A DNA stretch of 64,000 bases from assembly GCA_965645245.1 (NCBI GenBank), contig OZ287083.1, positions 620,001 through 684,000 on the forward strand. Direction: 5' to 3'. Below, piece by piece: positions 27,258-34,854 of this stretch. The stretch's first letter is position 1, and every line of letters starts with the position of its first letter. This DNA comes from Massalongia carnosa. Lineage: Eukaryota. Below the pieces are notes generated by a model. It did not search any database, was not told the origin of the DNA, and was given only the letters and a program-made list of their open reading frames with translations. Both the position numbers and the translations under genes were made by a program.

Positions 27258-29256
27258 ATGTCTCAACGAGGTGGACGTCAGAAAAATCACCTGGTAGATG
27301 AGAATTTCAAGGATATCATTACTGAGGGCTTAAAAAATCCTCAACATCAATGCATTCATTGCGGTCATCAATCAACCAGAAATGCTGCTAGGGGACAACA
27401 GCATCTAAATCAATGTGATGCCTATCAAAAAGAGAAAGCTAGAAAACAGAAGGGTATTCTCAGTAATGCCTCTATTCAACTGCCCATCACTACGTTGATT
27501 CGTCCCCTTAATCAAGCCCAAATTGCATCAGCACATCGAGCAGCTGCGATGTCTGTCTATATGACAAATCTGCCATTTAACCACTTCGAAAATCCGTACG
27601 TTATTGCTCATCATCAGGCACTTAATCCGGGCTATAAACCTCCTCATTCTGGCCTTGTTGCTGGCAAGCTGTTGGACGAAATCTATGGCATCGTTAAATC
27701 GAAAGTTATCAAGGAATTGAATGCTTCTAATTACCTGAACTTCTTCACTGACGAGACAGCCAACATTCGAAAAGAACGTGTTATAAATCTCTGTTGTCAT
27801 GTTCCCCCGTCCGCCACCTCCAATGGAGGAGGATTTCAATTGAAAGCTGATGCTAGTGTTGCCGAGAAGATGAGTGCTGTCGTTCAAGCTCAATGGGTGA
27901 TAAAAGGTTGTAGGGAAGCAACCAACGATCAGCTTTGGAGAATCAATTGCATTGCCACTGATACGTGTGCAACCATGAAGGCTATGTGGACGGAGATAGC
28001 AAAATTTCCAGAGATGAAACACGTGTTTTTCGTTCCCTGCGACAGTCATGGTCTGCAATTGCTGATGGAGACATACTGAAATTTCCATTCTTTTCGGAGG
28101 TTATAGAAAAGGCACAATTGATAGTAACCAGCTTTCGGGGGTCGAATAAGGAAATGTCCATTTTAAGGGGTTATCAAATGAAGGTATGCCAAATTCTTGA
28201 ATTATTAAACTTTCTGATGACCAACCTTTCTGATGATCAAACTTCTAGGCCTATCAACAACGTCGTTCATTGATTCTTAACGTTCTTACCAGATGGGGAA
28301 CGACGATAGGCTTATTAAACTCAGTCCTCAGGAATCAGCAGGCCTTATTGGATTATTTTCAACAAAAGAATCCCGGTATTGATCAGGGAAGAAAGAATTC
28401 TTTGAGAAGCTTCGTCAATGACTTTTCTTTTTGGAAAAAGCTGACCATTGTCAAGAAAGTGATGGATCCCATACATCAGTTTCAATACATGTCCGAGGCC
28501 GAAGAGCATAAACTTTATACCATAGCCAACACCTGGAATAAGATTCGATCTCATCTATATTCAATGGCTGCCAATGAAGACGACGAGACGGATTTGAATC
28601 ACATTGCTCAGGTGATTTGGGAAGACAGATATCTCAGTCAGATTACTGAGCTTCATGTGGTAGCAGCTCTTTTGCTTCCTCAGAATCATGCTATAAAGGT
28701 GATTGGCGTATCTACGGAGCCGACATTTGCTCCGCTAATGCATAGATTTTTCAATCAACATCTGACTAGTGCAGAGGCAGCTACTGCCATGAAGCAATGG
28801 CTCGCATTTCGCGATCAAGAAGATGGCTTTCATACAAGCTCCGAATGCTGGACGTATCAAATGGATCCGGAGCTGTTTTGGACATTCAGCAGAAATTTTG
28901 CATCAACCCTTAGCAGCTTAGCCAGAAAGGTGATGAAACTTCCTGGTAATTCGGTATTGGCCGAAAGAAGCTGGTCGGTAATGAATCTGATCATGAATAA
29001 AACGCGCAATTCCATGAGCTCGATAAGCGTAGATAAACTCATGTTTATCTACATGAATGAGCGTACCCTCAACCGACCTGGGGATATCAAAAAGAAGTTA
29101 CAATTTGCTGGCATCGACATTGACGAAAGCGATCTATGTGAAATGGAAGACAGATTGCTGTAGGATGAAATTGTCATTCAGGAGTCCTTGACGTCATCGA
29201 AACGTCCGGCCAGTCAAGAAATAGGAGGTGATTCAGCGAGATCATGGGTTGAATAA
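27258..29256 (+). pseudogene. hAT-family transposase (BED finger, DUF659-like region, hAT dimerisation domain), frameshifted
   Basis: HQCIHCG...QQHLNQC (BED); FFTDET and IATDTCATM (two Asp); PCDSHGLQL (CxxH); TRW; GNSVLAERSWSVM (Glu). A 1-nt deletion lies near 28068, an intron at 28184-28248, and TAG at 29161 is followed by 30 more open codons to TAA at 29256. Confidence 0.9.
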
Positions 29257-29484
29257 GTAGAAATACATACAATTAATTGTATGACGATGACCGGCAAAAT
29301 TACGTACTTTTTAAGTTTACTATTTGCTGACTTTTCCCCGCCTTTCCCCCTTTCCGCACCTCCCTACCCACCCCCTCCCCCCCTGCAAATAATCCATGAA
29401 AGTTTCACTCATGAAGATGACAGTGAAAGTTTCGCCCGATCGGGTTAGGCAAACTTTCAGTGTTCTTTTCAAATCGGAGCCCTA
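27258..29484 (+). mobile_element. hAT DNA transposon remnant; candidate right end ...AATCGGAGCCCTA at 29484, left end not found
   Basis: Transposase as above; subterminal repeats GAAAGTTTC at 29398 and 29425 and an inverted copy at 29451. The terminus reads TAGGGCT on the minus strand, as in many hAT ends. Confidence 0.7.
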
Positions 29485-29516
29485 GTTGTGACTGCTTCTT
29501 CATCCACTTGGAACGG

Positions 29517-30853
29517 CACGCGGGTGACAAAATAAATTGCAACGTGTAAGCGAATTTACCCCCCCTTTTTTATTCAAATTTTCATCTCATCATCAACCAT
29601 CATCTGCATAGCTGATAATATTCATCTAAATTACATGAGATCAATAACCAGTCATCGCCCCCTTTGCATCTTTTACCTCTTTCAATCTTTTGGGCATGGA
29701 TAACACCCTTTCATTGATAAATTCCTGACTGACTCGAGCCCATCCCTCCCTAATCAGCTGCTCCAAACTTGCATCGTCCCAATGAGGAAATTTACGAACA
29801 TGCTGCTTTGCGGGCTGCCAGCAATTTTCAATGGAGGCTAGATCAGGAGATGAAGCACAATTGAAATAGTGCTCTAAATCGTGATCTAACTTCCACTTTT
29901 TGACCGCGTTTCGTGTCTTGCCCGTGCCATGACCAGAGTCTCCATCTTCTTCAAGTACGAAGTCATCTCCACGCTCCAACCAGGGCTTGACAACGGGATC
30001 AAGAATAGCGTCAATATACACCTGATGAGTCATTTTTCCATTGCTATTGCTGGGCACATCGTAGAAGTAGATATCCGACTTGAAATTGTAACCAACTGCT
30101 GCCCAGCAGTGCTTTCTTTTACGATCTTTCTCAGGTGGTGCATCACGATGCTGAATACAATCCCAACGATATCTTGTTCCGGGCTTACGAATGATTCGTA
30201 ACTGTCCTTCAGGCCCGTAGCCAAAATGAATCTCATCGCTGAATCGTACGCGATGCCAGTCTTCGGACCGAGGATATTTATTTAACATAACTGTAGCAAA
30301 TTCTTCTCTTCTTTCTTGTGATGCCATTGCCAGCCACCCTTTGACACAGGCTAGACATTTGTGATAATTCAAGGCAGCTGTAAGAGTTCTCTTCATTGTA
30401 CGTCCCATCACGTCGGCCCCAATCTCCTGTGCTAAAGCATCCCATGTGTAGCGTTTTCCTTCCAATTGTAGATCTTGATCCTGCAGAATGTGATCTGCCT
30501 CCTTCAGCTGATCATCACTAATATTTCGCTTTCGACCCCGAGTCTCAACGAGAGAAGAATTGTGACGTGTGCGAGAAGAAGCTCCGCTTTTGATGATGTT
30601 ATAGCCCGCTCGCTCGGCCACGCCAAATTCCTGAAAAATGGCCCGTGGATCGAATGGAATTGCATGTGAGATGAGAAATTGATAAGCTCCTTGAACTTTG
30701 GCCTTTTTGGGCCTTTGTGGGAGTATCATAATGAGGCTTTTTGGGTCGAGACATTGATGATGAGATAAAAAGTTGAAAAAAAGGAGGGTGTTTTGATGGG
30801 GCATTCAGGGGTAAATTCGCTTACACGTTGCAATTTATTTTGTCACCCGCGTG
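29517..30853 (-). mobile_element. Intact 1337-bp Tc1/mariner (IS630-like) DNA transposon with perfect 46-bp TIRs
   Basis: TIRs at 29517-29562 and 30808-30853 (CACGCGGGTGACAAAATAAATTGCAACGTGTAAGCGAATTTACCCC) enclose one transposase ORF; AACGG flanks both sides. Confidence 0.95.
29641..30804 (-). CDS. Tc1-like DDE transposase (DD38E spacing)
   Basis: Uninterrupted 387-aa ORF with ETRGRKR, W.RVRFSDEIHFG, CWAAVGY, FVLEEDGDSGHG, SSPDLASIENCW and SMPKRL...KGAMTGY. I count 38 residues between the second Asp and the Glu. The true start may be a downstream ATG. Confidence 0.93.
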   Translation of the reverse strand: MPHQNTLLFFNFLSHHQCLDPKSLIMILPQRPKKAKVQGAYQFLISHAIPFDPRAIFQEFGVAERAGYNIIKSGASSRTRHNSSLVETRGRKRNISDDQLKEADHILQDQDLQLEGKRYTWDALAQEIGADVMGRTMKRTLTAALNYHKCLACVKGWLAMASQERREEFATVMLNKYPRSEDWHRVRFSDEIHFGYGPEGQLRIIRKPGTRYRWDCIQHRDAPPEKDRKRKHCWAAVGYNFKSDIYFYDVPSNSNGKMTHQVYIDAILDPVVKPWLERGDDFVLEEDGDSGHGTGKTRNAVKKWKLDHDLEHYFNCASSPDLASIENCWQPAKQHVRKFPHWDDASLEQLIREGWARVSQEFINERVLSMPKRLKEVKDAKGAMTGY

Positions 30854-31139
30854 AACGGATTAACCTTCGACCACTCGGCTTCGGATCAACCATCGGCCGT
30901 TGATTCATCCTGTGCAAGATGAAGGCCATGAGCCCGCTTCGCCAGGCTCTCATAACCAGGTGAGATTCGCAGAGTTCCCAGATTTCGTAACTGTTTATCC
31001 CAAAACTTTCTGTTTTTTCCGTTACATTATGTTCCATGATTTTGTATTCTCACTGCATATGTATCAGATTAAGCAAGGACAATACTATATACAGCTTGGC
31101 AGACGCTAACACCCCAAAAAGCAACGCATACCAAATGTG

Positions 31140-34100
31140 ATGCCCATATCTACCGACACCTTCTTAGCCACTCAACCTACAGTTGAAAACAGAACATCGT
31201 GGGTTTGCAAAGGCGATGATCGTAGACATGATGATCGAGGAATTCCTCGTCCTGGGCCTGACGAGAGCCAGTCTACATGCACGCTCTCGGCGGAAAAAAT
31301 GTTTTTTAATGATTTCTCCAATTGGATGCCCTTAGGAAGTGCCATGTTTGATCCGGGTGACGCCCACAACGTACCCATTTCCGAAGAATGGGAGGAGACT
31401 ATTGTTGATCGGGGTTTGCTTAGCCGCCGTTATCCTCAGCTGCTCCCCTTGTGGGAAATTTTCCGTCTTAAAATTGTTAGATTGAGGCAGAGAAGACACC
31501 GGCTCCATGACCAGAAAGTGACTGTCCGGTTTTATATACTTCCTGAAGACGTGGGACAACGGTTTGTGCTTCGGGTAGGGTCAAAGCCACGTAAGTGCTT
31601 GAAGAGCCTGATGATGTTACTTGATACATCGTTCGAATCGTGGGAAGGGCGTAACGACTCCACCGACCCAACTCAGCAAGTTGTGCAGCAGCTAGAAAAA
31701 GAATCGCTTTTTTACATGTTCAACACCCTCCCTTCTCCGTCTCCCGATCCTGATCGAGCCGCTTGTCCAGTTGCAAGGGCTGCCATGATCTCTCTCCTCT
31801 CCGTCGAAGTCATGCGTGGTCTGAAAACTGCTCTTTATTCCTACCAAAAGCGCAGCGCAGCAGAAATGGTTAGGCGAGAAACTAGCCCGTCTCGTACGCT
31901 TGATCCGCGCCTCGATAGCATGGAAGGCCCCACTGGAATGTCCTACTACTATGACAAAATGAGCGGGATATTGCTCTGTGGTAGACGAGAATATGAAGAG
32001 GCAAGGGGTGGTATATTGGCCGAGGTATGCTAGACCCAAACCTCATTATAGAAGGCATCGGTGCTAATCAAGCTGTTAGACAATGGGGTTGGGCAAAACA
32101 ATGATATGCTTAGCTACTATCCTAGCGACGAAAGGGCACTGGCCCCAGATTCCACCAAGTTACTCTGTGGGCCTGAATCCGGTCCGGCCCAAAGTTGCTA
32201 GTTTGTTGCAGATGACGGCAGCTGCGATTGGGCGCGAACAGATCCCGTGGAGAACGTATTTTCAGAACCTTTCAGAGGCCGGAGAGCATCTCGCTAACTG
32301 TACCACGGCCCTTGAGGAAAACCTTGGTTCTTACTTTATTCCACCGCTACCTACCCGAGGTCGTGCGCAGGCAGTGGCTTCGGAAGGTCAGAGGATTCAT
32401 CTTTGCACTGCAACACTCATCATAGTACCGCCTAACTTGGTCCTCCAATGGAGGCGTGAGATTACTTTACACCTCAAGCCAGGTGCGCTAAAAGTGCTTT
32501 TCATATATCGTGGCGAAAAATTGATGCCTCCCTTGGTCGAACTGCTGTCCTATGACGTTATCCTCATGTCGAGAAAACGGTTCGAACAGGAGTTTAACAT
32601 CAATCAGCCTTACCCTTGGCCCAAGAAGGCGAATGGCTACCCTTCCACATCTAATAGAATCCCTGATCATTTTGAAAATGGTCGGTACCACACGCCCCTC
32701 AAGGATTTACACTTTCTACGCATTATAGTGGATGAAGGGCACGATTTCGCGTCTACAGGGGGGAAGAACATGGCAACTGCAGCGCTTCATAGTCTTCATG
32801 TTGAACGTAGATGGATCGTAAGTGGAACTCCAACTACTGGCCTTCTTGGCGTTGAAGTCGGTCTTGCCACCCACGAGACCTCCGAAGGGGAGGTAGCGCC
32901 TCGTCACGAATCAAATCAATCCGCTCTAGATGCAAGAAGAGAGGTAATGCATCAGGCGCAAGAAAGATCGGATCTTGAAAAGCTTGGCTCGATTGTGGTT
33001 GATTTCCTACGATTGAGTCCGTGGGCCAATTCTAAGGATGACGATCCTGCTTCATGGGCCAAACTAATCACGCCGCTTGGGGAAGTTCATAGAAAGCCAA
33101 CGTCCCTGAGGAAACTTTTGGAAAGCCTAGTTGTTCGCCACCAGATACAAGCGGTAGAAGACGACCTTCAGCTACCCTCCCTTCATAATCGAGTTGTGTA
33201 CTTGGAGCCTAGTTGGCACGACAAGCTCAGCTTTAACTTGTTCGTTCTGACTCTTACAGCGAACGCCGTAACCTCGGAGCGTGTCGACCAGGATTACATG
33301 TTCCATCCACGCAACCGGGCTCAACTTGATCACCTGATTATGAATTTGAGGCAATCAGCCTTCTATTGGACGAGTTTTTCTTCCGAAGACATCTCCAAGA
33401 CCTTGGAGGTCTGCCAGGAGTATCTCGACAAGACGTCTCGTTTGGAAGATCGGGAGCTGCTCCTAGATGCCATGTTAATGGGCAAGAAGGCTCTAAGATC
33501 ATCCTCATGGAGGGCCTTTGCGGATCTCCACGAGCTGGGCGTCTATGTTGACGACTTCCCAGAAGATGCTAGCTACGCATGGTCCCTGGTGAATGAAACG
33601 GCCGAAGATACTATTCTTCTCGGAGCCACCCATTTAATCGAGGCACAGAAATATGTTGACGCGCGTCGGGACTCTTCTGAACCTACCGTGGGACTTGATT
33701 CCCTTGGCTTGCGGATGATCTGGGATCGTGGAGACCAGAAGACTTTTGAAGAGCCTAAATTGACGGTAAGAAACACTGTTTCGAGGCAAAAGCCAAGTCT
33801 CAAACCCCGCCATGTGCAACAAGCCCAAGATGGTGCTATTTCTGGCGCTGCCAACAATTTTGGGAACCCGGAACCTCTTAAGTCAGCAATGAAGACTTCA
33901 CTACCAAGTGCGGATTCTCCGTTAGCAAAGACGAAGATTTCCGGGACGGCGTCTGCTAAGCTTAGCTATCTTCTTGATAGAGTTATCGCACTACAACAAA
34001 ACGAGAAGATTCTCATCTTTTACGAAGGGGATCAGATTGCGTATTACATCGCCCAAGCCTTTGATCTCCTCAGCATCGAGTACCGGATTTATACCAGGAC

Positions 34101-34854
34101 GCTTTCCACCTACAAGCGAAATTCGTACATCGACAACTTCAACGAGTCGGAGACTACGCGAGTCTTGTTGATGAACGTGCGCCAAGCTGCGCATGGGCTT
34201 CACATCGCTAGCGCGTCTCGGGTCTTCTTTGTCAATCCGGTTTGGCAGCCTAACGTTGAAGCGCAGGCGATCAAACGTGCGCACCGTATCGGACAGACTC
34301 GACCGGTGTATGTGGAGACGCTAGTTCTCAAGGACACAATTGAGGATCGAATGCTGAAACGAAGAAAAAAGATGACTACCGAAGAGCATCAAACGGCCAA
34401 GAAGAGCCTCGTAGACGATCCAATCATGGGTGCGATCATCAAGGATGCGAGACCCATTCCGCTTTCGAAAGAGGAGGCGCTCGATATGGGGAAGCAAATG
34501 GCGCGCCTAGAGACCCCACAGTATCTATTTAGCCACTTCGCCAAGGATGCGTCGGGCATTGACAATACAGACCACGATCTTGACGCCGACCCTATGAAGC
34601 AACGCCGCAAACGAAAGCTAGTAGAATTTGGCGCCGATGCGACTGAACCACCAACAAGTAGCGAGACTCCGTTACCAGCACCGAGATTTGGGGACCCATA
34701 CCCACCGGGCGCGAGAGACAACCAGGCAAGGCCTGATCTCGTGAACAACCAGCACGACCTTGCAGAACCAAGACCACGAAAAAGAGTAGCTTTTGCAATC
34801 GATGATGCAGAATCCTCGCAAGCTGAAATCCCGCATTCTAGCCTGTTCGGATAA
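31140..34854 (+). CDS. SNF2-family (Rad5/16-like) helicase/ATPase; 5' end uncertain
   Basis: LYSYQKRS; GGILAE|TMGLGKT across an intron near 32025-32080; TLIIVPPNLVLQW; IIVDEGH; RWIVSGTP; SAKLSYL; AAHGLHIASASRVFFVNPVWQPNVEAQAIKRAHRIGQ. No RING finger was seen. Confidence 0.9.

Follow-up and report, generated by a model that had tools for sequence, protein, structure and literature searches.

The window, by which we mean the whole stretch of 64,000 nucleotides of Massalongia carnosa contig OZ287083.1 that was analysed, contains a 1,337-bp transposon (29517-30853) with a Tc1-type transposase gene, and most complete copies of its family are flanked by variable 5-bp repeats instead of TA. From the evidence laid out below we conclude, at a probability of roughly 0.88, that the element belongs to an old and widespread ascomycete clade of Tc1-type cut-and-paste transposons whose own transposase would make a 5-nt stagger at the target; that the enzyme itself is the source of the 5-bp target site duplications (TSDs) we infer from the co-occurrence of its open reading frame (ORF) with this type of TSD. 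A wider reading, to which we would give even odds, is that of an undescribed, old ITm clade that is distributed across several ascomycete classes and changed from a 2-nt stagger at TA to a 5-nt, GC-preferring one, convergent with the target geometry of Transib/RAG; its TSD, its motifs and the length of its branch would make it a group of its own, and the switch would be explained by a small number of loop changes relative to a 2-bp sister family.

The element in the window

The initial annotation had described perfect 46-bp terminal inverted repeats (TIRs), AACGG immediately outside both ends and TA at neither junction, and all three statements were confirmed: the TIRs, 46 nt each, are 100% complementary, AACGG is seen on both sides, and TA is found at neither junction of the element. 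The features are, in window coordinates:

29512..29516, no strand: left copy of the TSD AACGG, 5 bp
29517..29562, plus strand: 46-bp TIR on the 3' side of the transposase gene, starting CACGC, with an A-run from position 13
29568..29596, plus strand: subterminal inverted repeat, 29 nt, pairing with 30754-30782 at 90%
29641..30754, minus strand: coding region of the native transposase (other copies encode 367 aa), with an early frameshift in the window copy
29641..30729, minus strand: open frame P0001, 362 aa, predicted Tc1-type transposase (PF13358)
29827..29829, minus strand: predicted catalytic E301, SPDL..IE motif, 38 residues past D262
29944..29946, minus strand: predicted catalytic D262, EEDGDSGH motif
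30235..30237, minus strand: predicted catalytic D165, FSDE motif
30706..30715, minus strand: private 10-bp insertion, mostly repeating 7 adjacent bases, placed to within a few bases
30754..30782, minus strand: partner of the subterminal inverted repeat
30808..30853, minus strand: 46-bp TIR on the 5' side of the transposase gene
30854..30858, no strand: right copy of the TSD AACGG, 5 bp

The 29-nt subterminal inverted repeat represents a possible second binding site of the transposase. The only long ORF between the TIRs is that of the Tc1-type transposase, which had been annotated as an intact DD38E enzyme. The DD38E spacing was validated (38 residues, D262-E301), but the gene is not intact, since the private 10-bp insertion shifts the native frame, which starts at 30754 and is closed after 51 codons. 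The 362-aa frame uses another ATG and is without the conserved N-terminal YxTP stretch; reading can likewise begin at an ATG further upstream (30804), which gives 387 aa. Among 35 aligned copies the insertion occurs in the window copy alone, and the contigs of runs X4 and X6 do not have it. The window copy was inserted recently, and judging from its frame its own protein is probably impaired. Copies of the window family lie a median of 8 bases away from the majority sequence, and a long ORF is preserved in 16 of the 35 that were aligned, from which we conclude that the family moved recently.

Two neighbours of the element were recorded as well. A broken hAT transposon with DUF659-like and PF05699 ORFs, multi-copy by contig depth, occupies positions 27258-29484 and ends at about 29484, 27 bases ahead of the TSD, as a repeat separate from the Tc1-type element; its other end was not found within the 64-kb window. 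On the promoter side, a SNF2-type helicase gene (31140-34854) is located on the opposite strand, about 290 bases from the end of the element.

Five-base duplications and their targets

The genome holds at least about 40 copies of the window family at 96-100% identity, and 37 of the 40 loci taken gave both ends. An exact, copy-specific 5-bp direct repeat flanks 29 of these 37 complete copies; a 2-bp and a 6-bp repeat were found once each, the latter at a copy with a variant end (L006), and repeats of 3, 4, 7, 8 or 9 bp did not occur. The proposal that AACGG is a 5-bp TSD and not a chance match is thus upheld by the family as a whole. Further families with about 77%, 71% and 53-55% identity were identified by protein search, and 40 of their loci yielded 33 elements with both ends, 25 of them with exact 5-mers. 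When the flanks of every copy were tabulated, as had been proposed at the outset, with element termini set by anchored rules, 57 of 73 pooled end pairs in the genome showed an exact 5-bp repeat, comprising 43 distinct 5-mers, and none of the 73 had TA at either junction, the duplication that defines IS630-Tc1-mariner elements. In a mismatch control, left and right flanks of different copies agreed in 22 of 5256 combinations. The 16 end pairs without an exact 5-mer include three that match at 4 of 5 bases, two that are shifted by one base and one spurious second pairing (L059), as well as several with flanks that look recombined. The 5-bp repeat is a target site duplication.

As a control, the DD34E Tc1 families of the same genome (L180, L185, L190) were used: 21 of their 23 elements had TA on both sides and none had a 5-bp repeat; this count leaves out 13 of 40 DDE_3 loci, which had no profile match.

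Several loci deserve separate mention. Two internal-deletion derivatives of 570-580 bp (L145, L154) have both TIRs and 5-bp TSDs and are non-autonomous members. At L024:2825-2831, in a tandem-repeat target, the CATGG repeat that was expected directly at the element end is set off from it by two extra bases, TG. A sixth family, represented by L183:3338-4688 (47% identity, DD38E), lies inside a near-perfect inverted repeat of 213 bp, because of which its flanks are mirror images and its TSD is unreadable.

Sites without an insertion provide a further view of the duplication. No empty site for the window copy's own flanks was found in the genome, and among the joints listed for the contigs of runs X3-X6, which break at repeats, none runs across the element. 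Three other copies (L016, L064, L080) interrupt one motif, the uninterrupted form of which occurs 82 times in the genome (58 exact), and three such loci without an insertion (L161, L163 and L164) agree with the flanks of the filled sites and contain CCCGA once. Another copy (L061) is inserted into a second repeat, which is present 53 times in uninterrupted form (11 exact). CACGTG is absent from the empty paralogous sites examined. These sites decide on a model put forward along with the 5-bp reading in the initial annotation, in which the true TIR has 42 bp and CG is duplicated inside a CACGTG target, and likewise on a variant with a TIR one base longer and a 3-bp TSD. CG is indeed found at TIR positions 3-4, and in five cases a near-palindromic target gives the impression of an extended inverted repeat flanked by 3-bp repeats. 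However, the CG model is refuted, because in the empty sites the 5-mer is present a single time and CACGTG is missing; in addition, relatives start with CAAG or CTCG, and with fixed termini 57 repeats of 5 bp stand against a single one of 3 bp, so that we regard the chance of either variant as negligible. Enzymes of the Tc1 family cut the donor ends by staggered hydrolysis, without hairpins, and leave short footprints of the ends; at the one repeated target that was checked, no excision footprint was found.

Different families struck the same position of a repeat (L016 versus L064 and L080; L060 versus L067), which points to a target choice common to different families. The TSDs have a GC content of 65%, compared with 43% in the flanks, and their profile is CCWGG-like with A or T as the central base in 40 of 57. 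Among 114 half-sites of the genome, 74 have T at position -5 and 71 have A at -4, at a background of 0.28 (p 6e-16 and 5e-14, respectively, for sites that partly share repeats and are not fully independent); among 34 half-sites from metagenomes, the corresponding numbers are 18 and 19. The target pattern is TA-N-(CCWGG-like)-N-TA, a loose palindrome of 11 bp. Sleeping Beauty is reported to prefer A at -3, according to the accessible part of PMC8934666, and by analogy the TA outside the cuts would resemble this A more than the duplicated TA.

The most used target motif (L161-L164 and other places in the genome) occurs as inverted pairs about 2-4 kb apart and in this resembles a TIR belonging to a further abundant DNA transposon; it holds at least four insertions from two families.

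Distribution, phylogeny and the transposase

A word-based search returned 295 relatives, and with a profile of 67 relatives, 492 clusters were matched at an E-value of 1e-30 or better. Named relatives come from Pyrenophora, Bimuria, Clathrospora, Botrytis and Orbilia; no relatives were found in viral contigs or in plasmids. The P0064 cluster comprises multi-copy clade members of Pyrenophora tritici-repentis, which are annotated as 'HMG box protein'; their family is the sister of the metagenome locus L094.

For the metagenomes, 80 loci were considered, 46 of which had an inverted repeat. A fixed terminus rule excluded 16 of these, another 2 were removed because their flanks were cut and 5 more as duplicates; 23 were left, of which 15 had an exact 5-bp repeat, 8 did not and none had TA. 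The ends of the 15 five-bp loci start with CAAG (8), CACG (4) or CTCG (3), and two loci outside this set (L085, L099) had 5-bp repeats on a separate check. Consequently, the CAC ends emphasized at first hold for this genome but are not a universal mark, since CAAG and CTCG ends occur elsewhere.

Three metagenome loci inside the clade could be taken to mean that the clade is mixed, with a 5-nt stagger in most lineages, TA (kept or regained) or another length in some, and a stagger that switches easily: both inverted repeats of L094:44-1469 and of L102:181-1592 carry TA at their outer edge, and L106:668-2024 has an apparent 7-bp direct repeat. Yet each of them is a single copy on a short contig, and no multi-copy family examined shows TA or other lengths. 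The TA of L102 is located exactly at the CA of other members, as a RIP-type C-to-T change would give, and L094 and L102, which are among the 16 loci failing the terminus rule, are either TA-duplicating members or members with RIP-altered CA ends. A mixed clade therefore appears quite improbable to us, and we retain the reading of a 5-nt stagger, though L094 or L102 may be a TA-type member inside the clade.

In an IQ-TREE quick search, run without bootstrap on 64 rows of which 40 have no TSD label and none is a named Tc1, impala or Intruder element, a branch with SH-aLRT 100 and a length of 0.87 had all 19 five-bp rows on the same side, and the 5 TA/2-bp rows lay apart. According to this tree, the 5-bp elements are one long-branched clade. 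The suggestion of a fungal IS630/Tc1 lineage with altered target recognition and stagger is thus supported by the TSDs of five families in the genome and of metagenome relatives, by the empty sites and by a single clade in the tree.

In those family pairs in which dS was unsaturated, 7 of 15, dN/dS was 0.07-0.16, by which the transposase is under purifying selection. This bears on the possibility that the element is moved in trans by another enzyme making 5-bp TSDs, Transib/RAG-like or other, with the Tc1-type ORF as a passenger. The CAC ends and GC-rich 5-bp TSDs do match Transib, one family of which prefers cCAWTGc in the accessible text of PMC1131882. A passenger, however, is difficult to reconcile with an ORF that is selected across families and is the sole long one between the TIRs, or with the co-occurrence of ORF and TSD type down to about 40% identity. 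Moreover, the 2-bp sister family has similar TIRs; those of the clade often start with CAAG or CTCG and are without the heptamer-12/23-nonamer layout, and Transib is reported as absent from fungi in the part of PMC5751038 available to us. A RAG1 profile search of the genome gave no match, but neither did its controls, so that it carries no weight in this question. We consider mobilisation in trans to be very improbable and the element's own transposase to be the probable source of the 5-bp TSDs.

The nearest family outside the clade (L197) is at 28% identity. Its TIRs start with CAAGG and contain the core GGGTGACA, the same core as in many 5-bp members, and its flanks, read by eye in 10 distinct pairs, were TA/TA in 5, TT/TT in 2 and unmatched in 3. 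Ends like those of the 5-bp clade combined with 2-bp flanks suggest that the transposon end was conserved while the target side changed. The sister family (L197, L205-L224; relatives P0269-P0275) has the YHKC and RYC..CIQ motifs in common with the clade and differs from it by its mostly-TA 2-bp flanks, its 28% identity and its position outside the long branch. It is possibly an intermediate with relaxed specificity toward the 5-bp clade. In its members (L197, L205-L224) the D-to-E spacing is long, and the motif around the second D looks degenerate.

The initial annotation had also noted that Transib/RAG-type elements, marked by CAC...GTG ends and 5-bp TSDs, use a different transposase, and indeed Pfam, fold and PDB searches all gave Tc1/mariner, with no RAG or Transib entries among the matches listed. 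P0001 matched Pfam DDE_3 (PF13358) at E 2.5e-9, a domain found in 59 of the 67 relatives; PF01498, the N-terminal DNA-binding region with a Tc3-type HTH, was found in 32 of the 67, and P0001 itself had no match to it. The AlphaFold model (mean pLDDT 83.7) has a helical N-terminus, and its best Foldseek match was Sleeping Beauty 5cr4 (E 2.5e-11), followed by Mos1 and SETMAR. In a profile search of the PDB, 5cr4 (E 1.1e-21) was the sole match below E 0.001. By model and profile, the transposase has a predicted Tc1-type DDE fold that is closest to Sleeping Beauty. The spacing from D to E in intact triads of the 67 relatives is 37 in 30 cases, 38 in 18 and up to 43. DD38E is therefore no family mark, and the lead toward the DD38E group Intruder was not sustained.

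At Mos1 integration, the target is cut with a 2-bp stagger, sharply bent and its adenines are flipped; it is held by R186, F187, K190 and W159 and read by backbone atoms of V214, as described in the accessible text of PMC5481204. For Sleeping Beauty, H187, P247 and K248 influence target choice (PMC8934666, in the part available). In our alignment, K-H187 of Sleeping Beauty corresponds to KHSG in the TA family L180 and to RSG in the sister family, and the 5-bp clade has a longer charged stretch without such a motif at this position. P247/K248 correspond to S265/G266 in the clade (S265 in 61 of 67, G266 in 60 of 67), followed by a glycine-rich insertion of 3-9 residues, and an NGK motif, with K232 in 64 of 67, is found where Sleeping Beauty has DGI. 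This residue mapping runs through a poorly predicted loop (mean pLDDT 48-58, residues 171-200). K248 is absent from the TA families of the same genome too, so that this position alone cannot explain the change in TSD.

We propose that the transposase would join the transposon ends to target phosphates 5 nt apart, compared with 2, and that gap repair would then duplicate five variable bases. The transposon ends would have been kept Tc1-like and the handling of the target altered: a central TA would no longer be required. The preferred target is a 5-mer, GC-rich and CCWGG-like, that is flanked beyond each cut by T at a distance of three bases and A at two. As a hypothesis on the residues behind the stagger switch, which we hold with far less confidence than the main reading, the tip of the clamp loop may have been rebuilt by replacement of K-H187 with a longer charged stretch, and S-G at P247/K248, the insertion of 3-9 residues and the conserved NGK motif may contribute. 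These changes would remove the adenine-flipping clamp and leave the target less sharply bent, and the two active sites could thereby engage phosphates 5 bp apart.

Comparison with known systems

Among other ITm branches, Zator, Tc4 and TBE have 3-bp TSDs, and the Fusarium element impala duplicates TA. A 2-bp stagger at TA is stated as strict for mariner/Tc1/IS630 enzymes (PMC5481204), TSD length serves as a criterion in the assignment of superfamilies (PMC2817418, PMC10045372), and one study defined complete elements by TA (PMC4188875), in each case in the accessible text. As far as the fungal literature was available (Paracoccidioides Trem, Sclerotinia, Verticillium, Cochliobolus), it contained only Tc1/mariner families of the TA type or families with unstated TSD. 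In the full-text literature as far as it was accessible, no Tc1-type family was found described as having 5-bp TSDs, a scope that does not extend to Repbase, Dfam, TREP and most subscription journals. The clade is thus apparently undescribed; there is a substantial chance, if somewhat short of even, that an earlier record exists, for example in the supplements of PMC7325037, which may hold members.

With its young copies, intact ORFs and close 2-bp sister, the clade offers a direct test of the distance between strand-transfer sites in the Tc1 transpososome, and its enzyme is a compact, 367-aa relative of Sleeping Beauty without a TA requirement. If the wider reading given at the start is true, the cut spacing of Sleeping Beauty-type enzymes could be reset by design. 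CAC ends together with a GC-rich 5-bp TSD are weakened as a stand-alone sign of Transib/RAG ancestry, and by implication fungal annotations that demand TA flanks would miss or mislabel such elements.

Like Tc1 elements (Sleeping Beauty 5cr4; L180, L185 and L190 of this genome), the elements have a PF13358 domain, PF01498 in 32 of 67 relatives and their best fold and profile match in this group, as well as a single ORF, a length of about 1.3 kb, within the range of 1.3-2.4 kb, and short TIRs starting with C. Unlike Tc1, they have a variable, GC-rich 5-bp TSD instead of TA, a D-to-E spacing of 37-43 (38 in the window copy) versus 34, and a tip of the clamp loop and residues past the second D that appear rebuilt. 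With Intruder they share a Tc1-type enzyme and, in the window copy, DD38E; the spacing varies across the fungal clade, and this comparison is one by description, not on the tree. Intruder is reported from animals only in the accessible part of PMC7731502, and impala is DD37E (PMC7325037, in the part available); the match in DD38E with Intruder is probably independent. Since TA is absent from the junctions, we class the clade as a Tc1-related lineage and file it outside Tc1 proper and Intruder.

With Transib/RAG1, as described in the accessible text of PMC1131882, the elements share the GC-rich 5-bp TSD, the preference for a central W and, in this genome, the first bases CAC. They differ in having a Tc1-type enzyme of 367 aa versus a RAG1-core-like one of about 600 aa, no heptamer, 12/23 spacer or nonamer, with an A-run from TIR position 13, and first bases that vary among CACG, CAAG and CTCG. 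The likeness to Transib is convergent.
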